Shown here in pieces: positions 5,808-20,740 of a stretch of DNA of 64,000 bases. Source of the DNA: Shigella phage SHFML-26. The stretch lies in the sequence record KX130862. One strand, given 5' to 3'. The notes below the pieces were generated by a model. That model did not search any database and was not told the origin of the DNA. It saw only the letters and a program-made list of their open reading frames with translations. Positions within the stretch are counted from its first letter, which is position 1; the number at the start of each line of letters is the position of its first letter. The translations under genes and the position numbers were made by a program.

Positions 5808-6050
5808 TTAATATCCTCTTTGTTTTGGTTTATTTTACCAAAAATTTATAAAGCAATATAGGAGCCGAAGCTCCTATCCACATAATACGCCATACAGAGG
5901 CTCGTTAGAACTTTTAAATTTTATGCGCTTATATTTTATAGTTCCTTCTGCTTTAGCTTTATCATGAGACTCTTTAAAGCGTCTCATCATTTCCTCTTTA
6001 GAGAAACGAATTTTATTATAATCTATTTCAGAAGTCTGGGTGTTCATCTT

Positions 6051-6257
6051 TCATAACTGCCACCATTTTTTGACTTGATAAGAATCAACCCACACTTTCA
6101 TATTAGGGTCTGCTCTTACAATAGGAGGATTAACTTCTTTAATTGAACTATCATGGTATTCTTTTTCAGAAATTTTCACACAAAGATGACCATTCAAAGA
6201 TTCAGTAAATCCTGCATTAATTTTAAGACGCTTGAATTTTACGTGTGTAAGCATCAA
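6051..6257 (-). CDS. hypothetical protein
   Basis: 68-aa ORF co-oriented with neighbours; start uncertain. Confidence 0.4.
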   Translation of the reverse strand: MMLTHVKFKRLKINAGFTESLNGHLCVKISEKEYHDSSIKEVNPPIVRADPNMKVWVDSYQVKKWWQL

Positions 6258-11447: not shown

Positions 11448-13257
11448 GTTTTACTCGTTTTACCATTTCTTTCATTTTACCTAAATTCCATGGAACAACG
11501 CTAGGAGTTCCAAGATATCCGCATGTTCTTCTTATTGTATTCATCTTTTTAGGATCAGTTTCTCCACAAATAGAACAAACAAATCCGTTTTCAGTAGGAG
11601 TCATTTCATGGGTACTTCCGCATGTAAAACACTTATCTACTGGCATGTTAACACCAAAATAATCTAAATGTTGTACAGCATAATCCCATACAGCCTCAAG
11701 ACCTTTTAGGTTATTTTTCATATCAGGAAGTTCAACATAAGAAATGTGACCACCTGTCGCAATGAAATGATATGGCGCTTCACGAGAAATTTTTTCAAAC
11801 GGAGTAATATTTTCTTCTACTGAAACGTGGAAACTATTAGTGTACCAGCCTTTATCGGTAACATCTTTTACACTTCCATATTTTTCTGTATCAAGTTTAC
11901 AGAAGCGATAACAAAGGTTTTCAGCAGGAGTCGAATATAAACTAAAAGCAAATCCAGTTCTTTCAGTCCACTGTTTAAGATGAGCATTCATTTTAGTTAA
12001 AATTTCTTGTCCAATATCACGACCGACAAGAATATTCAATTCGTGAATACCAATGTATCCTAGGGACACTGAACTTCTACCATTTTTAAATAACTCAATT
12101 ATATCGTCATCAGGTTTAAGACGAACCCCGAATGCACCTTCTTGGTAAAGAATAGGAGCAACAGTCGCTTTAACTCCTTTTAAGGAACTAATTCTACACA
12201 TCAAAGCTTCAAAACATAAATCCATTCGTTCATTGAATAATTCAACAAATTTCTGTTCATTGAACTGTGTTCCAATATAAGAATCTAACGCGATGCGAGG
12301 AAGATTCAGTGTTACAACACCAAGATTATTACGTCCATCAAGAATTTCATTACCAGTCGAATCTTTCCATACGCTCAAGAAACTACGGCAACCCATTGGA
12401 GAAACAGGAATAGATGAACCAGTGATAGCTTTATTGTTCTTAGCTGAAATAATATCAGGATACATTCTTTTGCTTGCACACTCTAGAGCAAGCTGCTTAA
12501 TATCATAGTTCGGATCGTCTTTATAAAGATTAACACCTTCTTCAACAAACATAACAAGCTTAGGGAAAATAGGAGTTATCCCATCACGACCAAGACCTTT
12601 AATACGATTTTTCAGAATTGCTTTCTGAATCATTCGTTCAGTCCAGTCAGTTCCTGTACCAAATGTAATTGTTACAAAAGGAGTCTGTCCGTTTGAACTA
12701 AAGAGAGTATTTACTTCATATTCATAAGCTTGGAATGCATCGTATACGTCTTTTTCTGTTTTAGATTGAGCATAATTTAACGCATCAGCGATTTGCCATT
12801 TTTCTGCATCCTCAATATGTTTTGCATAGGTGCGTTTAACATAAGGAGAAAGTACTTTATCTACATTAGCAAAAGTCGTTCCGCCGTATTGGTGAGAAGC
12901 AACCTGTGCAGTAATTTGTGCCATAATTGCAGTAGCAACGCCAATTGATTTAGGAGTTTCAATCTGCGCATTACCTAGCTTAAATCCGTTCTCAAGCATT
13001 CCTTTTAAATCTACTAAACAGCAATTAGTAAATGGAAGAGCAGGGGAATAATCAATATCGTGGAAATGAATAATTCCGCTTTCATGCGCTTTCATAATAA
13101 AAGACGGGACCATATTTTTGGCAATGTGTTTAGACACAATACCAGCCATAAGGTCCCGTTGAGTTGGAAAAACACGAGAATCTTTATTAGCATTCTCGTT
13201 TAAAAGGTCTTTATTAGTTTTATGAATCAATCCTTCAATTTCTTTTTCAATTGTCAT
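11440..13257 (-). CDS. nrdD: anaerobic ribonucleoside-triphosphate reductase NrdD
   Basis: 605 aa continuous ORF; C-terminal glycyl-radical region and Cys-rich zinc site (CFTCGS...CSICGE); no intron interruption. Confidence 0.95.
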   Translation of the reverse strand: MTIEKEIEGLIHKTNKDLLNENANKDSRVFPTQRDLMAGIVSKHIAKNMVPSFIMKAHESGIIHFHDIDYSPALPFTNCCLVDLKGMLENGFKLGNAQIETPKSIGVATAIMAQITAQVASHQYGGTTFANVDKVLSPYVKRTYAKHIEDAEKWQIADALNYAQSKTEKDVYDAFQAYEYEVNTLFSSNGQTPFVTITFGTGTDWTERMIQKAILKNRIKGLGRDGITPIFPKLVMFVEEGVNLYKDDPNYDIKQLALECASKRMYPDIISAKNNKAITGSSIPVSPMGCRSFLSVWKDSTGNEILDGRNNLGVVTLNLPRIALDSYIGTQFNEQKFVELFNERMDLCFEALMCRISSLKGVKATVAPILYQEGAFGVRLKPDDDIIELFKNGRSSVSLGYIGIHELNILVGRDIGQEILTKMNAHLKQWTERTGFAFSLYSTPAENLCYRFCKLDTEKYGSVKDVTDKGWYTNSFHVSVEENITPFEKISREAPYHFIATGGHISYVELPDMKNNLKGLEAVWDYAVQHLDYFGVNMPVDKCFTCGSTHEMTPTENGFVCSICGETDPKKMNTIRRTCGYLGTPSVVPWNLGKMKEMVKRVKHA

Positions 13258-13767: not shown

Positions 13768-13816
13768 TTAAGTATTGTAAAACATTCGATGCAATCGTTT
13801 ATACTGTCGAATCATC
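13768..13816 (-). repeat. direct repeat copy 1 of the pin 3' end (about 48 bp)
   Basis: aagtattgtaaaacattcgatgcaatcgtttatactgtcgaatcatc versus aagtattataaaacatttgatgcaatcgcttatattgccgaatcatt at about 13983-14030; a second shorter repeat (cagaaaaagaattttg) near 13957 and 14037. Confidence 0.6.
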
Positions 13817-13944
13817 TTTTTAGTAGGACGAGAATAGGTTCCTACGCAAGTGGTCATATGAGGGTCCGTAGAATGTCCTTTAATAAAAAGTTTCCAAACC
13901 TTACCGCCATTTAACTTTTCAGTATAAACCAATTCGGTTTTCAT
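13768..13944 (-). CDS. small ORF (58 aa) sharing its last 15 residues with Pin
   Basis: ATG-initiated minus ORF MKTELVYTEKLNGG...MIRQYKRLHRMFYNT; the C-terminus is encoded by a direct repeat of the pin 3' end; below the track cutoff. Confidence 0.3.
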   Translation of the reverse strand: MKTELVYTEKLNGGKVWKLFIKGHSTDPHMTTCVGTYSRPTKKMIRQYKRLHRMFYNT

Positions 13945-13980
13945 TAAAATGCCTTGTCAGAAAAAGAATTTTGAGTTTTT

Positions 13981-14466
13981 TCAAGTATTATAAAACATTT
14001 GATGCAATCGCTTATATTGCCGAATCATTTGGTCAGAAAAAGAATTTTGTGTTTCAAGCCATTCAATGTACTCTGCGGCAGCTTGCATTAAATTTCCTTC
14101 ATAACCATCAATATCTTTTTTCAATGCCACTTTAGCTAATGCATATGAAATACGTTCACCTTGAAAAGCGGCTTTAGGCTTCTGAGCATCTTGGCTAGTT
14201 CTCTCTACAACTTCTTCAATTTCGCCATTTTCAACGGATTCAGTATTCCACAAGCACCAATACGTAATTGGCTTATCATAGATGTTAATAATCTTTCCGT
14301 CGGAAAGTTCAATTTCAATAATTCCAGTATCAGGCTCTATATCATCTTCACATTCTTTTGTAAGTTCACGAACTTTAAAGACAGTACCTGCACTAAGTTC
14401 CGGCCAGTAATTACATAGCCCTGTATCAACACGATTAATTCTAAACCACTTATCTACTGTAATCAT
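13981..14466 (-). CDS. pin: Pin, inhibitor of host Lon protease
   Basis: Track ORF 13981..14484 begins at TTG; the ATG at MITVDKWFRINRV gives 161 aa as in T4 Pin; positioned next to gene 49. Confidence 0.7.
   Translation of the reverse strand: MITVDKWFRINRVDTGLCNYWPELSAGTVFKVRELTKECEDDIEPDTGIIEIELSDGKIINIYDKPITYWCLWNTESVENGEIEEVVERTSQDAQKPKAAFQGERISYALAKVALKKDIDGYEGNLMQAAAEYIEWLETQNSFSDQMIRQYKRLHQMFYNT
13983..14055 (-). repeat. direct repeat copy 2 (3' end of pin)
   Basis: See copy 1. Confidence 0.6.
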
Positions 14467-14617
14467 GTCCCATCTCCATATCAATTAAGTCATTTATCGT
14501 TGGTTCATTATATACTGTTTCTTCATCAGTGTAAACCGGTTCTTCCGGCTCTGGCTCTACAGTTTCCCATCTAGCCGCCCACCAGGGTTTAACCCCGAAG
14601 CTTATTAAGTTCTTCAT
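14450..14617 (-). CDS. small ORF (about 55 aa)
   Basis: ATG-initiated minus ORF MKNLISFGVKPWW... filling the gap upstream of pin; below the track cutoff. Confidence 0.25.
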   Translation of the reverse strand: MKNLISFGVKPWWAARWETVEPEPEEPVYTDEETVYNEPTINDLIDMEMGHDYSR

Positions 14618-14759
14618 AATCAATCCAGGATTCTAGTCCTGATGGCAAATCAGATTCAATTTCCCAAAGAAGCTCTTCAATTTTCTGAAGACGATCTAGT
14701 TCTTCAGCTGGAATAGTAACCATTGATGGAGTTCTTGATACACTAATATCGTAAATCAT
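14589..14759 (-). CDS. small hypothetical protein
   Basis: Track ORF 14589..14798 starts at GTG; the internal ATG (MIYDISV...) abuts the upstream stop. Confidence 0.4.
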   Translation of the reverse strand: MIYDISVSRTPSMVTIPAEELDRLQKIEELLWEIESDLPSGLESWIDYEELNKLRG

Positions 14760-14761
14760 AT

Positions 14762-14977
14762 TTACCCCAGTTTGACCATGCAATCGCCGTATTTCCACTT
14801 AGAAATAGACTTTTCGCCATTAGAATAATAAACTTCGAGTTTAGCACGGTTATTTTTAATTTGAATAACCTTGGCTGTCATTAAAGTTCCATACCCATAG
14901 TAAACTGCAACTTCATCACCTACATATACCGCGCTTCCGCGGTAATCATGGATATAATCAGTTCCTTCGAGCATCAT
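14762..14977 (-). CDS. hypothetical protein
   Basis: 71-aa ORF; ATG overlaps the nrdC stop (ATGA). Confidence 0.5.
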   Translation of the reverse strand: MMLEGTDYIHDYRGSAVYVGDEVAVYYGYGTLMTAKVIQIKNNRAKLEVYYSNGEKSISKWKYGDCMVKLG

Positions 14978-15481: not shown

Positions 15482-15782
15482 TTTCTTCTCGGTCAAATCG
15501 GTGTTTACAATGGCGACATTTATAACGAAGATTACTAGTCTGCCAATGGACCAATTGCACCTGTTCAGTTCCACATTCAGGGCAATTAGGAACGTTTTTA
15601 GAAGCACGTTCGCGGCGTTCAACCATGACCATTACAGAATCCCAATTAATAGGGCTGCTATAATCATCACAACCATGAATCTTTCCACGCATTTCCAAAT
15701 CGTCTTCTTCACCGGCCATAATAATTTTAATTAAACTGGAATTACTTGAAGCTGCAATGTCTTCTAATAGACGCTTTTTCAT
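15468..15782 (-). CDS. zinc-ribbon protein
   Basis: 104 aa; CPEC...CRHC four-Cys motif near the C-terminus. Confidence 0.55.
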
Positions 15783-16708
15783 TTCAATACCTCAATAGCA
15801 TTACGTAAACCATTTGCTTTTGCATTAAGAGCTTTTAACAATTTGGTGTGTTCTGCAATTTGGGCTTCAACTTCAATCAAACGAGCATTGAGATATTCGC
15901 GTTCTTCACTCAGATTATCAGCCTTTTCTGCTTTAGGTTCTTTTACAACTTGCTTATATGTATTAGGGTTCTTCAGTTTAATTAGAATGCGTGAACTGTA
16001 CAGCATTGAACCATTATCTTCGGTTTCGTCATACATTTCCACTACGTCCATCATCTCCACCATCGTGCAGAGTTTATAAGACAACGAACGAATAATTTTG
16101 TTGTGCTTATTAATTTCTCTAGCTGTCATGGTGCCGAGATTACGTGAGTAATAATAAGGAACCTGGATATTAATTAATACTGATGAACCACCTGGCTTGT
16201 GTGTTACTTCATCAGCAATAACCCAATCCTTAACATGAACTGTATTTGTACGGTCATCGCCCGCGGTAAATAGTTTACGAGCATGCTTAAAAAGCATATT
16301 CACTTGGTCATTGAATTGACAAGCGAATTTATCAGCAAATTTAGTTTCGGGAATGGTAGATAACCAATCAGCCAAATGGGTCCTTTTAACATCGTTAACA
16401 ATAGTAAATTCAACCAAATCGGTTATAGATGTCTCAGATTTAATGAAGCTCGGCTTCATAAAGTTTTTAATGTTATCACTAGCTACAGTAGAAGATAACA
16501 GACGAGAACGTTTAAACCATTGAAGCAAATTGCCTAACGAATGAGAATAAGCGTTCTGAGTATCTTTACAGATATGATTTTCCTGGCCAACATATTGAAG
16601 GAAATCACGAAGAATATTATTGATTACTGCCCTGTGTCCTATCTGATAATTACGATGTTTAGTAATAAGACTGTCAAAATAATCAATATAATGTTTACGA
16701 GTTTTCAT
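15779..16708 (-). CDS. hypothetical protein with C-terminal coiled-coil
   Basis: 309 aa; last 40 residues are a heptad-repeat helix; first of four similar tandem genes. Confidence 0.6.
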   Translation of the reverse strand: MKTRKHYIDYFDSLITKHRNYQIGHRAVINNILRDFLQYVGQENHICKDTQNAYSHSLGNLLQWFKRSRLLSSTVASDNIKNFMKPSFIKSETSITDLVEFTIVNDVKRTHLADWLSTIPETKFADKFACQFNDQVNMLFKHARKLFTAGDDRTNTVHVKDWVIADEVTHKPGGSSVLINIQVPYYYSRNLGTMTAREINKHNKIIRSLSYKLCTMVEMMDVVEMYDETEDNGSMLYSSRILIKLKNPNTYKQVVKEPKAEKADNLSEEREYLNARLIEVEAQIAEHTKLLKALNAKANGLRNAIEVLK

Positions 16709-16760
16709 GTTCTTCTCACTTTGTTAATGGTTTATACTCCGAGCCATCCTTGGCTTTAAA

Positions 16761-17762
16761 TTACTTAATTAACTGTAAAGCTTGTTCAAGACGATCCAGG
16801 CGATTAACAGATTCTTCCCAAATCCTTTTAGCCTGCTCATATTCTTTCTGTGCTTTATTAGAAATTTCTAGAACTTCTTTATAAGCTTTTTCTAGTGCAA
16901 TAACTTCTGGACGAATTTCTATCGGTTCAGGTGAATCGTCAAGACATTCCATTAGTTCCTCAAGGGTAGTTTCTTCTTTAGGAGTATTCACAATTTCATC
17001 ACATTTTTGTTGGTAAATTTCTTTATCAGTCGGTGAGTACGCGCACTTTACTTCACGAAGACTAACTACAATTTTATATCCTTCCCAACCACCCATATTT
17101 TTGAAAGGATATGTATGAATACTTTTTACAGTTTCCATACAATCCAAAGCCGTCTCTAATTGATGAGTTATAGTGCTAGCAATTGAGAAAAATTTATTAA
17201 TATTCTTTTGGTTAGCTTCTGGTGTAAAAAATTCGTAATTCACAAAAATAGCTACTTTATTTTTATCAAGCTCATATTCTTTTACGATAATCATATCAGA
17301 AGCCAAAGGATGAATTTGACGATAATCGCCATAACATAATTTAGAAGCTGATTTTAGAATTTGTCCTTTAAAAAGTCTGAAATTACTAATCCAACGACGA
17401 GTAAAAATATTCTTAGGGTCTTCTTTGATATTAAGATGATAAGAATTAACATCACCGAACCAATTGTATCCTATTACACCTTTAGTTCGTTTAATTTCTT
17501 TCCCAAAATTATCAAGAATATCCCGATTAACCAAATATGAAAGAAGACGAGACCCTTTAAAGGTTTTCTTGATAACATCTTTATCTACACGGCTAGAAAT
17601 TTTACGAATTTCATGAATAAATTTAGTAGAAGAAACAATACTTGCATCAATACTACTGAGCCATTGATTGATAATAGAAAGAACAGCGTTCTGACTAGAC
17701 ATGGGTTTAACTTTATCATCAATAACCCTATTGAATGATTTGATATATTCGTTACGAGTCAT
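16761..17762 (-). CDS. hypothetical protein with C-terminal coiled-coil
   Basis: Track ORF 16761..17792; the first ATG sits inside the promoter -10 element, so the ATG at MTRNEYIKSF with a GAGGAG SD is preferred. Confidence 0.6.
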   Translation of the reverse strand: MTRNEYIKSFNRVIDDKVKPMSSQNAVLSIINQWLSSIDASIVSSTKFIHEIRKISSRVDKDVIKKTFKGSRLLSYLVNRDILDNFGKEIKRTKGVIGYNWFGDVNSYHLNIKEDPKNIFTRRWISNFRLFKGQILKSASKLCYGDYRQIHPLASDMIIVKEYELDKNKVAIFVNYEFFTPEANQKNINKFFSIASTITHQLETALDCMETVKSIHTYPFKNMGGWEGYKIVVSLREVKCAYSPTDKEIYQQKCDEIVNTPKEETTLEELMECLDDSPEPIEIRPEVIALEKAYKEVLEISNKAQKEYEQAKRIWEESVNRLDRLEQALQLIK

Positions 17763-17790
17763 ATTAATCTCCTCAGTAGAAAGTAAGAAC

Positions 17791-17820
17791 ATTATACCAC
17801 ATCCTTGTGGAAAAGTAAAC
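17791..17820 (-). promoter_or_regulatory. T4-type early promoter (GTTTAC -35, TATAAT -10)
   Basis: Minus strand GTTTACttttccacaaggatgtggTATAAT upstream of the 16761..17762 gene. Confidence 0.55.
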
Positions 17821-18842
17821 TAGTTCAGTGCATTTAGTGCATTGTTCAGTTTAGAACGTTGCTTCGTAAGATTTTTGACTTTTTCTTGAGCTTTTTCCAG
17901 CATCTTTTCAGCTTCTAACACTTCATTAGTTGCTTTAACAAGTTCATCATCTACTGCCTTGATAGACTTCTCAATCGCATCCGCGTGCCATTTTTCAACA
18001 GGTTTAAGACTCGGATTTTCAACAGGAAGAAAATTCACTTTATTAAATTTCCATGCGTCTTTATTACCTGAGCTATACATCCAAAATTTAGGATCGTTTG
18101 ATGAGCAATTAGATAAATTTAAGTTATCTTGCACTTCCTGCTTTTTCTCTTGCGGGACTTCGTCCTTTCTCAAAAAATCGTATTTAAATGAAACGATCAT
18201 ATCAAGTTCATATGTTGTTGTATGTTCCCAATTTCGCTCAAAACGAGGTAAAATCTTAGATTGAACAGCAGCAACAACATCCATATACTTAAATGCTTCT
18301 GTCAGCTGTGATTTAAGACATTCACAAATTGAAAGAGAATTTTTAGTATTAGGCTTAAAGCTAATTCGTGCAGTTCTATTATTTTCTTTTAATGGTCTTA
18401 CTTCCATCTGAAGAGTATAACCATCAAATTTCAGATTCTTTAAGTTAATATCAGAGCCTTTTAATCGACTAGCAGTAGACAAAATTTGCTTTAATTGTCT
18501 ACGGAACAGAGCAATAAATCTCCATTCAATACGATAATGATTTGGATTGAAAAATCCAGATGATAAATCGACCTTACTTTGACCAACGCCTTGAACAATC
18601 AAAGGATTTTTATAATCAATAGTTTTACAGAAATCGGTGAGCTGTTCACGAGCAGTCATTTGCGTAATATACCCTGCTTTACTAAAATTACGCACCCATT
18701 CGCTGCTATTCAGATATTTAAAGTGATGAATAGCACGATTAACTTTATCAGGGTCTAAATTATTTTCACACAAAAATGTCATAACATCACGAGTATAGCT
18801 GGCATTACGAACCATATCTTCAATTTGAGAACGAGTTTTCAT
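17820..18842 (-). CDS. hypothetical protein with C-terminal coiled-coil
   Basis: 340 aa; C-terminal helix ...VLEAEKMLEKAQEKVKNLTKQRSKLNNALNALN. Confidence 0.6.
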   Translation of the reverse strand: MKTRSQIEDMVRNASYTRDVMTFLCENNLDPDKVNRAIHHFKYLNSSEWVRNFSKAGYITQMTAREQLTDFCKTIDYKNPLIVQGVGQSKVDLSSGFFNPNHYRIEWRFIALFRRQLKQILSTASRLKGSDINLKNLKFDGYTLQMEVRPLKENNRTARISFKPNTKNSLSICECLKSQLTEAFKYMDVVAAVQSKILPRFERNWEHTTTYELDMIVSFKYDFLRKDEVPQEKKQEVQDNLNLSNCSSNDPKFWMYSSGNKDAWKFNKVNFLPVENPSLKPVEKWHADAIEKSIKAVDDELVKATNEVLEAEKMLEKAQEKVKNLTKQRSKLNNALNALN

Positions 18843-18850
18843 AGTGTTCC

Positions 18851-19741
18851 TTAAGATTTAAGTAAATCGACAATTTTAATTAACTTTTCACGCTCAGATT
18901 TAGCTTTACTACTCAGTCCAGATAGTCTGAAAATTTCATCATCATATTGTTGAATAGAAATATTTAGCTCTTCAATCTGCTTATTAAAATAAGCAATTTG
19001 TTCAGAATGTTTTTCATTACTACGAACTGGTACAGGTTTTGTAGGCAATTTAGTTGAACTGGATTCATCTGGGCGATAAATTAAAATACAACTTGAACCA
19101 ATCGGACATTTAGCACCAGACACATATTCTAATGTTCCGGCTTCTTTTAAAACTTCAAAAGCTAAACAGAGATGATGCCCCATATTAACATAATCAGTAG
19201 AGCGAGCTCTGATGTAATAATCATCTCCGCGAATACTAAATTTAAAGCATTTAAGGTCTTCTGTATTATTGGTCTTAAAAATCATTTGTTTATCTAGACC
19301 TTTAGCTAATCGAGCGCCTAATGCTAATAATCGTCGTTGATTTTCCCACAAATCCGCAATCATTTGATCGAATGACAATTTCGGCATTAGTCTACCATAA
19401 AGGTCATATCCTTTATTATAATTGCGAAGAATTTCACTCGCGTTAATACGAGACAACGCTCCAATTTTATTAAGGGCTTTCATGATGCGATTAGATAAAC
19501 TCATTCCAGACCCGTTTGTTCGCTGTAAATGTTTTTCTAATCCAAATCCAATATCAACTTTAAATTTATCTAAAATTTTGGCATGAACATCTCTGTCAAT
19601 AACATTCAAATCCAAAGTTGGGTTAAATCTATGAAAAAATTTATCTGGCTCTCCACGACGAAGTACAGTCCATTCATTCATCATTTTTTTATTAACTAAA
19701 GATTTAATTACTGCATTGACATTATTAATTACTACTGACAT
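18851..19741 (-). CDS. hypothetical protein with C-terminal coiled-coil
   Basis: Track ORF 18851..19756 starts at TTG; the ATG at MSVVINNV is the likely start. Confidence 0.6.
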   Translation of the reverse strand: MSVVINNVNAVIKSLVNKKMMNEWTVLRRGEPDKFFHRFNPTLDLNVIDRDVHAKILDKFKVDIGFGLEKHLQRTNGSGMSLSNRIMKALNKIGALSRINASEILRNYNKGYDLYGRLMPKLSFDQMIADLWENQRRLLALGARLAKGLDKQMIFKTNNTEDLKCFKFSIRGDDYYIRARSTDYVNMGHHLCLAFEVLKEAGTLEYVSGAKCPIGSSCILIYRPDESSSTKLPTKPVPVRSNEKHSEQIAYFNKQIEELNISIQQYDDEIFRLSGLSSKAKSEREKLIKIVDLLKS

Positions 19742-20212: not shown

Positions 20213-20740
20213 TTATGCGAGTACCGTCTTTAACCGTTCTTCAAACTTCCGAAGAGTATTCTGGCGTTCAGCTCTTTGCTTTTTGTAAGTTTCAATACGC
20301 TCTGAAATGAGAGTGTATCGTTCATTTACTGATTCTTTCATAAAATCAGGAATTTCACGAGAAGCTTTAATCTCATCAAATTTATCAATAACAGCTTGCT
20401 CTTCAGCAATTAAGTTATCATACATCAAAATATCTTTCTTGATGAACTCAATATCTTCTTGAGTTACACGAGATAATTTAGATGCTTTATCCTTTTTGTA
20501 TTGTTCGTTAGTATCACGAGACCAGTGTAATGTACGATTTTTATTCGTATTCTTGTAAATTTCTACAATACCAATCTCATCAATAATAACGATCCAATTC
20601 CAACGGGATTTGTAAATTTGTCCTCCATCAACTGTAATTTCACCTCCGATTGAGATGTCATTAAAGAACTTGCTTTGTGCTTCAGATTTAAATTTACCAT
20701 CGTTGTAATTTACCAGGTTGAAAATATCTTTAGCGTTCAT
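20213..20740 (-). CDS. hypothetical protein
   Basis: Track ORF 20213..20800 runs into the conserved promoter leader (TIQLSTTEE); true start is the ATG at MNAKDIFNL after a GGAGGA SD. Confidence 0.55.
   Translation of the reverse strand: MNAKDIFNLVNYNDGKFKSEAQSKFFNDISIGGEITVDGGQIYKSRWNWIVIIDEIGIVEIYKNTNKNRTLHWSRDTNEQYKKDKASKLSRVTQEDIEFIKKDILMYDNLIAEEQAVIDKFDEIKASREIPDFMKESVNERYTLISERIETYKKQRAERQNTLRKFEERLKTVLA

Follow-up and report, generated by a model that had tools for sequence, protein, structure and literature searches.

T4 is the best-studied phage, and about half of its genes are without a known function. Here we analyzed a stretch of 64,000 nucleotides (nt), referred to as the window, from Shigella phage SHFML-26 (sequence record KX130862), a Tequatrovirus approximately 97% identical to phage RB3, and examined within it a minus-strand array of four genes that is bounded by nrdC.2 and the membrane protein gene nrdC.7, as judged by comparison with annotated T4 and RB3. 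The four are already known from T4 as the hypothetical genes nrdC.3, nrdC.4, nrdC.5, and nrdC.6, one of which has a published phenotype. An earlier note, made from the sequence of the window, had read them as a duplicated family with divergent heads and a common coiled-coil tail, and the coordinates that it gave for the four open reading frames (ORFs) were exact:

15779..16708, minus strand: nrdC.3 ortholog, 309 amino acids (aa); in phrog_1435 together with nrdC.4
16761..17762, minus strand: nrdC.4 ortholog, 333 aa; starts MTRNEY; in phrog_1435
17820..18842, minus strand: nrdC.5 ortholog, 340 aa; Pfam DUF7235 (PF23882)
18851..19741, minus strand: nrdC.6 ortholog, 296 aa; relatives assigned to PF26899 by the database

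All four ORFs start with ATG, with a GAGG/AGGA Shine-Dalgarno-like stretch just upstream. The intergenic gaps along nrdC.6, nrdC.5, nrdC.4, and nrdC.3 are 8, 57, and 52 nt, respectively; the gap between nrdC.7 and nrdC.6 is 11 nt, leaving nrdC.7, nrdC.6, and nrdC.5 almost contiguous, and the stop codon of nrdC.3 overlaps the start codon of nrdC.2 (ATGA). Gene order from nrdC.2 to nrdC.7 is syntenic with T4 and RB3, and each of the four genes is the ortholog of its T4 namesake, with protein identities of 61% for nrdC.3 (a different allele), 91% for nrdC.4, 94% for nrdC.5, and, over residues 1-259, 98% for nrdC.6. The 4.9 kilobases around the array are 96.9% identical to RB3, RB5-7, RB9, and RB10, and the array region matches 733 phage records, nearly all of them T4-like phages of Escherichia, Shigella, Yersinia, and Salmonella. 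With a high score over its full length, each window protein belongs to its database family (Pfam PF23882, PF26897, and PF26899; PHROGs 1435, 2351, and 2257). In the databases these stand as three separate families of unknown function, with only nrdC.3 and nrdC.4 sharing a PHROG, whereas here all four are united in one superfamily by way of a bridging family.

Common ancestry of the four genes

When the products of the region's 11 genes were compared pairwise by BLASTP, NrdC.3 was linked to NrdC.4, with 26% identity over 160 residues, and no other pair was found. Small, shallow family alignments drawn from Tequatro-, Gapriver-, Dhaka-, and Mosigvirus loci were then compared as profiles by HHalign. 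The nrdC.3 and nrdC.4 families matched at 97-98% (98.3%, E 1e-14), and at 97% when the bodies alone were used; nrdC.4 and nrdC.5 matched at 71-76% (E 2e-5 to 4e-5) over approximately 160 co-linear body columns from which the tails had been removed. A scan of viral contigs with NrdC.5 returned close relatives only, and a word-indexed protein search with NrdC.5 alone returned nothing below 81% identity; the same type of search with a mixed alignment overlooked many known members.

A 315-residue protein of Marfa-like Klebsiella phages, found among the 18 matches of a HMMER profile of nrdC.3, nrdC.4, and nrdC.5, led to a further family, termed here the bridge family, of which Marfavirus, Kanagawavirus, and Mosugukvirus have one copy each, immediately upstream of nrdC.2. 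With members from Kanagawavirus IME523, PEi20, and Kosakonia 305, from Mosugukvirus PM2, and from Marfavirus, the bridge profile matched nrdC.5 at 97.3% (E 2e-11, 243 columns), nrdC.6 at 93.7% (E 2e-7, 205 columns), and nrdC.4 at 92.9% (E 4e-7, 163 columns), the aligned columns (163-243) including the core domain of the body. The direct match to nrdC.3 was weak (44%, E 2e-4, 242 columns); at the level of profile similarity, nrdC.3 is tied to the bridge family via nrdC.4 (98%). As a control, a bridge profile containing no Tequatrovirus sequence was run against all window ORFs of at least 100 residues (n = 69). The top 4 of the 69 were exactly the four genes of the array, with E values of 4e-7, 8e-5, 3e-4, and 0.035, and all others scored 0.06 or worse.

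Predicted structures gave a concordant picture. AlphaFold2 models cover NrdC.5 (predicted local distance difference test [pLDDT] of 71) and NrdC.6 (pLDDT of 76), and both show the same order of elements, namely, a helical N-domain, a helix pair, a hairpin, a helix, a second hairpin, a disordered linker, and a long C-terminal helix, with a core order of aa-bb-a-bb. When residues of the two proteins were paired solely by their sequence alignments to the bridge family, secondary structure agreed at 77% of 198 positions, compared to 29-65% when the alignment was shifted; for the bodies alone, agreement was 72%, compared to 20-56% when shifted. In Foldseek searches (BFVD), the NrdC.6 model matched the IME523 bridge protein (E 1.4e-6), and the NrdC.6 (E 1.5e-4) and NrdC.5 (E 1.7e-6) models shared one target, A0A1V0DXL6, a 313-residue protein of Yersinia phage fHe-Yen9-01. 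Profile similarity extends into the bodies, and the family is found near nrdC.2 in the gp49-nrdC-nrdC.11 accessory region in the window, T4, RB3, VR25, IME540, moha, IME523, PEi20, PM2, Kosakonia 305, and Marfa.

It is very likely that all four genes share a common ancestry. The proposal of a paralogous family in the earlier note is upheld by the nrdC.3-nrdC.4 (98%) and nrdC.4-nrdC.5 (71%) profile matches, the bridge matches, and the shared architecture of the models. Its description of the heads as divergent was correct insofar as divergence is strong, but the heads are not unrelated, as body-only HHalign and the shared element order attest; head similarity and C-terminal coiled-coil-like helices were both found. 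Acinetobacter phage Acj9 gp122 (325 aa), which is probably the Foldseek match E5EPQ6 of the NrdC.6 model (E 1e-5), has a similar layout but no profile similarity (E 0.01 or worse), and it was not accepted as a member. Structure matches of this kind suggest that the family may be spread more widely across Straboviridae.

Body, linker, and heptad tail

The models place the following elements between the N-terminal region and the tail:

18168..18530, minus strand: NrdC.5 core domain, residues approximately 105-225; helix pair, beta hairpin, helix, beta hairpin
19076..19372, minus strand: NrdC.6 core domain, residues approximately 124-222; element order as in NrdC.5
17997..18164, minus strand: NrdC.5 disordered linker, residues 227-282; pLDDT below 50
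19019..19075, minus strand: NrdC.6 disordered linker, residues 223-241; pLDDT below 50 over residues 227-241

The helical N-terminal region is variable and is partly missing from the nrdC.5-like proteins of Gapriver- and Dhakavirus; the linker, approximately 20-55 residues long, varies in length among family members. The best family-wide motif lies on the conserved, kinked helix pair of the core and reads FRRQLKQILSTASRLKG in NrdC.5, FRLFKGQILKSASKL in NrdC.4, NQRRLLALGARLAKG in NrdC.6, and NWRMILTLGSRLCVG in the bridge family. The NrdC.6 core holds the most conserved motif of that protein, NQRRLLALGARLxxGxDKQMxFKT, whose aligned counterparts are NWRMILTLGSRLCVG..ELEFKT in the bridge family and FRRQLKQILSTASRLKG in NrdC.5. 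Across 18 aligned sequences of the nrdC.3, nrdC.4, and nrdC.5 families, drawn from four genera, only T3, R4, F71, L332, and A335 are invariant. The MKTR start that had been remarked upon in two of the proteins is therefore genuine, T3 and R4 being among these residues, whereas the shared MTARE is attributable to chance: it is found at residue 194 in NrdC.3 and at residue 62 in NrdC.5, which are nonequivalent positions in the family alignment, and after shuffling, 39% of sets still contain a 5-mer common to two of the four proteins.

Each protein ends in a heptad-repeat helix, the helices of NrdC.3 and NrdC.4 being assigned from sequence only. Periodicity was measured as hydrophobicity power at a period of 3.5 residues and tested against 2000 shuffles:

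15782..15919, minus strand: NrdC.3 C-terminal heptad helix, residues approximately 264-309; periodicity p = 0.025
16764..16910, minus strand: NrdC.4 C-terminal heptad helix, residues approximately 285-333; periodicity p < 0.0005
17823..17993, minus strand: NrdC.5 C-terminal helix, residues 284-340; AlphaFold2; periodicity p < 0.0005
18854..19018, minus strand: NrdC.6 C-terminal helices, residues 242-272 and 278-295; kink at LSGLSS; periodicity p = 0.0025

In NrdC.4 the tail is the most strongly 3.5-periodic 42-residue window of the whole protein, and it is likewise the strongest window in NrdC.5 and NrdC.6. Across orthologs, heptad positions a and d are hydrophobic in 77-91% of cases (85% in the NrdC.3 tail and 86% in the NrdC.4 tail), compared to 22-26% elsewhere, and they are also less variable. 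AlphaFold2 predicts a single uninterrupted helix over residues 284-339 of NrdC.5 (pLDDT, 75-92), following the disordered linker, and two helices in the same place in NrdC.6. Heptad periodicity on a helix free of proline and glycine was found in all four proteins, with NrdC.3 the weakest case and NrdC.6 interrupted by one glycine-containing kink. The C-terminal heptad helices claimed in the earlier note were thus borne out by periodicity, by the a/d statistics, and by the two models, although they measure 45-56 residues rather than roughly 40. The d positions of NrdC.5 are rich in alanine, which by itself does not settle the oligomeric state.

All four tails share the C-terminal pattern L..hh.hh+ (for example, in a 41-residue stretch), and tails of different paralogs in one genome are only 9-23% identical. 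Between genera, the NrdC.6 tail is 57-69% identical compared to 28-41% for its body, and the NrdC.4 tail 61-65% compared to 36-61%. The tail is the best-conserved part within each ortholog group, yet it differs among paralogs.

A heptad-like C-terminal helix is also present in the nearby nrdC.8 (20213-20740, 175 aa; periodicity p = 0.045). This gene is much better conserved between genera (67-84%) and was rejected as a family member on its HHalign E values of 0.035-0.07.

Divergence, copy number, and natural variants

We compared the window phage with Gaprivervirus VR25 at the level of protein identity, which was 84% for nrdC, 82% for nrdC.11, 67% for nrdC.8, 64% for nrdC.2, 53% for nrdC.4, 43% for nrdC.6, and 25% for nrdC.5. 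The bodies evolve faster than the neighboring genes.

Within Tequatrovirus, nrdC.3 is dimorphic: the window type is found in approximately 360 records and the T4 type in approximately 130, the two being 61% identical, and the genes flanking nrdC.3 are 96-100% identical between carriers of the two alleles. Taken by part, the alleles are 87% identical over the N-terminal 75 residues, 46% in the middle, and 77% in the tail. The window nrdC.3 is nearer to the Mosigvirus gene (79%) than to that of T4 (61%), which suggests that the window type may reflect allele exchange across genera.

Copy number differs by genus. Kanagawavirus, Mosugukvirus, and Marfavirus have one copy; Gapriver- and Dhakavirus have three (nrdC.6, an nrdC.5-like gene, and nrdC.4), as does Mosigvirus (nrdC.6-like, nrdC.5-like, and nrdC.3-like genes); Tequatrovirus has four. 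In the sister genera, the slot beside nrdC.2 holds either an nrdC.3-type or an nrdC.4-type gene. Given these copy numbers, the four-gene array was therefore probably not made by one simple, recent tandem duplication. Of the origin by duplication that had been suggested, the paralogy stands, but a simple recent tandem event does not agree with the slot contents of the sister genera or with an nrdC.3 allele nearer to that of Mosigvirus.

All other genera examined have a small ORF of 66-71 codons directly before the nrdC.5-like or single-copy gene. It is absent from the window, where nrdC.6 and nrdC.5 are separated by 8 nt; in the single-copy genera, it is itself preceded by an unrelated conserved protein of 256-261 aa.

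Natural Tequatrovirus isolates without one to three members exist. In Salmonella phage Manna (5215-6252), NrdC.6 residues 1-269 are fused in frame to NrdC.4 residues approximately 253-333; the underlying deletion, which removes nrdC.5 and most of nrdC.4, took place at the 10-nt microhomology TGATGAAATT (window repeat 16992-17012 / 18932-18952). In phage ACG-C40 (4805-5216), all that is left between the two ends of a similar loss is 71 codons from the start of nrdC.5 and approximately 72 from the end of nrdC.3, and phage Pinarejo (approximately 5936-6149) has lost nrdC.6 save for its last 46 codons. A 299-aa protein (P0056) joins NrdC.5(146-271) to NrdC.3(137-309) at nonequivalent positions, and the NrdC.6 of Shigella phage Sf25 (P0071, 378 aa) carries an internal tandem duplication of approximately 83 residues that runs from the last part of the core through the linker and into the beginning of the tail. 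Modular exchange was considered for the Manna and P0056 fusions and rejected, as these are microhomology deletions joining nonequivalent or only roughly equivalent positions. An 803-nt metagenome contig from the European Nucleotide Archive (P0070) encodes a 120-aa head in frame with an exact NrdC.5 tail, followed by the start of nrdC.4; the head had no match in the phage collection, and only positions 480-803 of the contig match T4-like DNA. It was set aside as evidence of a body swap, since a real replacement and a chimeric assembly are both possible.

The T4 reference itself (NC_000866; nrdC.6 at 12067-12894) differs from the window gene by a 1-nt deletion (890 versus 891 nt). The resulting frameshift after residue approximately 258 yields a 275-aa product without the coiled-coil tail, the tail sequence itself persisting in a different reading frame; the cause would be a mutation of the laboratory strain or an error in sequencing.

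A putative role in counter-defense

In the literature searched for nrdC.3 to nrdC.6, a function is reported for nrdC.5 alone. A T4 clone with deletions failed to infect ECOR17 owing to the sirtuin defense protein Dsr1, and nrdC.5, described as a nonessential early gene, restored plating of this clone on cells with ECOR17 Dsr1 when supplied in trans from a plasmid (Srikant, Guegler and Laub, eLife 2022; PMC9391042). That study reports a genetic result only, giving no mechanism, structure, or family relationship and making no mention of nrdC.3, nrdC.4, or nrdC.6. T4 NrdC.5 (NP_049703) and its ortholog in the window (17820-18842) are equal in length and position and 94% identical, with no material sequence difference, and from this identity the window nrdC.5 would be expected to act against Dsr1 as well. 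The idea in the earlier note that such proteins target host factors has accordingly found support for one member.

No enzyme family was matched by the proteins in Pfam, NCBIfam, or PDB sequence searches, which likewise returned no solved structure or NCBIfam model as an informative match, and no acidic, His, Cys, or Ser position is invariant across the nrdC.3, nrdC.4, and nrdC.5 families; neither an enzyme domain nor catalytic residues of the kind that mark NAD+-restoring (NARP-type) counter-defense enzymes were found. In NCBIfam, residues 30-86 of NrdC.3 (16451-16621) weakly resemble the N-terminal domain of XerD-type tyrosine recombinases (E 0.0015, well short of the cutoff); this is probably noise, though it is the sole outside hint on the N-terminal helical region.

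With the gene models, paralogy, architecture, heptad tails, divergence pattern, natural loss and fusion variants, and dispensability established here, we propose that the four genes are ancient paralogs of one Tevenvirinae accessory gene, which would still be single-copy beside nrdC.2 in Kanagawavirus, Mosugukvirus, and Marfavirus. Their products would be expressed early and act as nonenzymatic binders that neutralize host immunity proteins: the fast-evolving body may recognize a particular host target, which for NrdC.5 would be the SIR2 NADase Dsr1, and the tail may make each protein a homo-oligomer, raising avidity for oligomeric immune proteins without cross-pairing of paralogs. As nrdC.5 overcomes Dsr1, the other three are candidate inhibitors of other defenses. 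We infer direct binding, oligomerization through the tail, and a counter-defense role for nrdC.3, nrdC.4, and nrdC.6, and we consider the explanation as a whole to be reasonably likely, with moderate confidence.

Several points weigh against it. HHalign compared shallow family alignments and did so without scoring secondary structure. Direct HHalign comparison of nrdC.6 with nrdC.3, nrdC.4, and nrdC.5 was not significant (E 0.003-0.1), and the 18 matches of the nrdC.3/nrdC.4/nrdC.5 HMMER profile among 1.84 billion representatives included no nrdC.6-type protein; nrdC.6 is tied to the rest through an intermediate family and, the tie being transitive, is the least securely placed of the four. 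Of the five NrdC.5 models, four have a pLDDT of approximately 56. With 95-99% identity in 472 Tequatrovirus records, nrdC.6 is unlike an arms-race gene within the genus, and the T4 frameshift, if real, would make its tail or the whole gene dispensable in laboratory T4. Functional evidence concerns one of the four genes, and the NrdC.5 effect could be indirect.

This last point leads to the main rival explanation, which we regard as unlikely but worth keeping in view, namely, that the genes are paralogs whose counter-defense effect is indirect, the proteins binding a phage or host housekeeping component rather than immune proteins. They might, for instance, mask or chaperone whichever phage protein sets off the immune sensor, or they might alter host physiology early in infection. 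The published experiment is a genetic suppression of Dsr1 by nrdC.5 and nothing beyond that (PMC9391042), and hiding of a trigger is conceivable, as the sensor domain of Dsr1, common to Avs7, recognizes the phage major capsid protein, at least for Drexlerviridae (PMC13581612). The high conservation of nrdC.6 within Tequatrovirus would also fit. Yet nrdC.3 to nrdC.6 are early genes, and production of capsid and tail proteins comes late. That the bodies diverge so rapidly from genus to genus is also more easily reconciled with variable host targets than with partners conserved in the virion, and natural isolates lose these genes without losing viability.

The tails and the gene spacing could also be read in terms of one hetero-oligomeric complex, in which all four proteins act through their tails as a single machine: every tail carries L..hh.hh+, and the genes lie side by side, with nrdC.7, nrdC.6, and nrdC.5 separated by only 11 and 8 nt. 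We hold this to be improbable, in that some genera have a single copy and others three, natural Tequatrovirus isolates are without one to three members, and nrdC.5 alone on a plasmid sufficed for complementation (PMC9391042). Identity of 9-23% between the tails of paralogs, against 57-69% among those of nrdC.6 orthologs, fits paralog-specific pairing better. Still further from the data is the notion that the genes are unrelated and gained similar coiled-coil tails independently or by domain shuffling, to which we give very little credence. It could draw on the single pairwise BLAST link, on the three separate Pfam families (PF26897, PF23882, and PF26899), and on the existence of natural fusions of one body with another tail. 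However, body-only HHalign connects nrdC.3 with nrdC.4 (97%) and nrdC.4 with nrdC.5 (76%), alignments to the bridge family run to 163-243 columns and take in the core domain, secondary-structure elements follow one order in the models of NrdC.5 and NrdC.6, and the fusions are deletions at short microhomologies such as the 10-nt TGATGAAATT rather than a modular design.

The early, nonenzymatic inhibitors that we favor resemble other systems in part. DSAD1 of SPbeta-like phages, a protein inhibitor of the SIR2 defense DSR2, is described as a nonenzymatic phage neutralizer of a defense-associated sirtuin and is of the mechanistic type proposed for NrdC.5; the host proteins differ, in that DSR2 recognizes the tail tube protein, whereas the Dsr1 sensor is related to that of Avs7 and recognizes the capsid protein. 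The likeness between DSAD1 and NrdC.5 would be one of function only. Phage tail terminator and completion proteins (gpU-like, DUF3168, and SPP1 gp17-like) were also considered among the closest known systems. Unlike a late, essential virion component, the array lies in the early accessory region on the minus strand; nrdC.5 is described as a nonessential early gene, and natural isolates without members are known. In a further, speculative version that we rate as rather improbable, a virion-protein (tail-terminator-like) fold would have been copied from the late module, given an oligomerizing coiled coil, and turned into early decoys or plugs for bacterial pattern-recognition receptors of the Dsr1/Avs type, which detect structural proteins conserved among phages. 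If so, each paralog would block a different receptor, and T-even phages would carry an expandable anti-sensor repertoire on one scaffold.

The neighborhood of the array is a counter-defense region. The gene pin, whose product is an inhibitor of Lon, is present there. The T4 protein gp49.2 inhibits OLD in T6 and T4 (PMC13096335), and the window has no homolog of T4 gp49.2 or gp49.3. Like the array, the dmd/tifA/adfA anti-toxin island and, just upstream of the array, pin with gp49.2 consist of nonessential early genes in a variable part of the genome that selection removes or amplifies, and each of them is, as we propose for the array, tuned to one host defense. They differ in being mutually unrelated in sequence, whereas the array is one fold multiplied into three to four tailed paralogs. 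The array also contains a promoter-like site:

17791..17819, minus strand: promoter-like site in the nrdC.5-nrdC.4 gap; GTTTACT, 17 nt, TGgTATAAT; shape of a T4 early promoter

With 10 of 12 consensus matches plus TG, this putative promoter is no more than a consensus match that stands in a sensible place, since such sites are not enriched across the region (25, compared to 26 ± 5.3 in shuffled sequences). Between 49.1 and nrdC (14450-14977), the window has two small ORFs of 69 and 71 codons in common with RB3. An extra ORF of 58 codons (13768-13944) lies between gene 49 (endonuclease VII) and pin, where T4 and RB3 have a gap of approximately 41 nt and no such ORF; through a 52-nt direct repeat of 87% identity (13977-14028), the 3' end of pin recurs in the last 15-18 codons of this ORF.

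The EVADES anti-defense catalog does not list these proteins, a literature search on the three Pfam accessions (PF23882, PF26897, and PF26899) returned nothing, and we found no paper or database that unites nrdC.3 to nrdC.6. Their union in one superfamily and the prediction of a role for three of them thus appear to be new. If nrdC.3, nrdC.4, and nrdC.6 are paralogs of the anti-Dsr1 gene nrdC.5, three hypothetical genes of T4 become testable candidates for inhibitors of other Escherichia coli defenses, and the design of body plus tail, together with natural alleles such as the two nrdC.3 types, lends itself to simple experiments. The array would then be an example of a counter-defense repertoire growing through duplication of one scaffold and would help to explain host-range differences among therapeutic T4-like phages, which vary here in copy number, alleles, and deletions.

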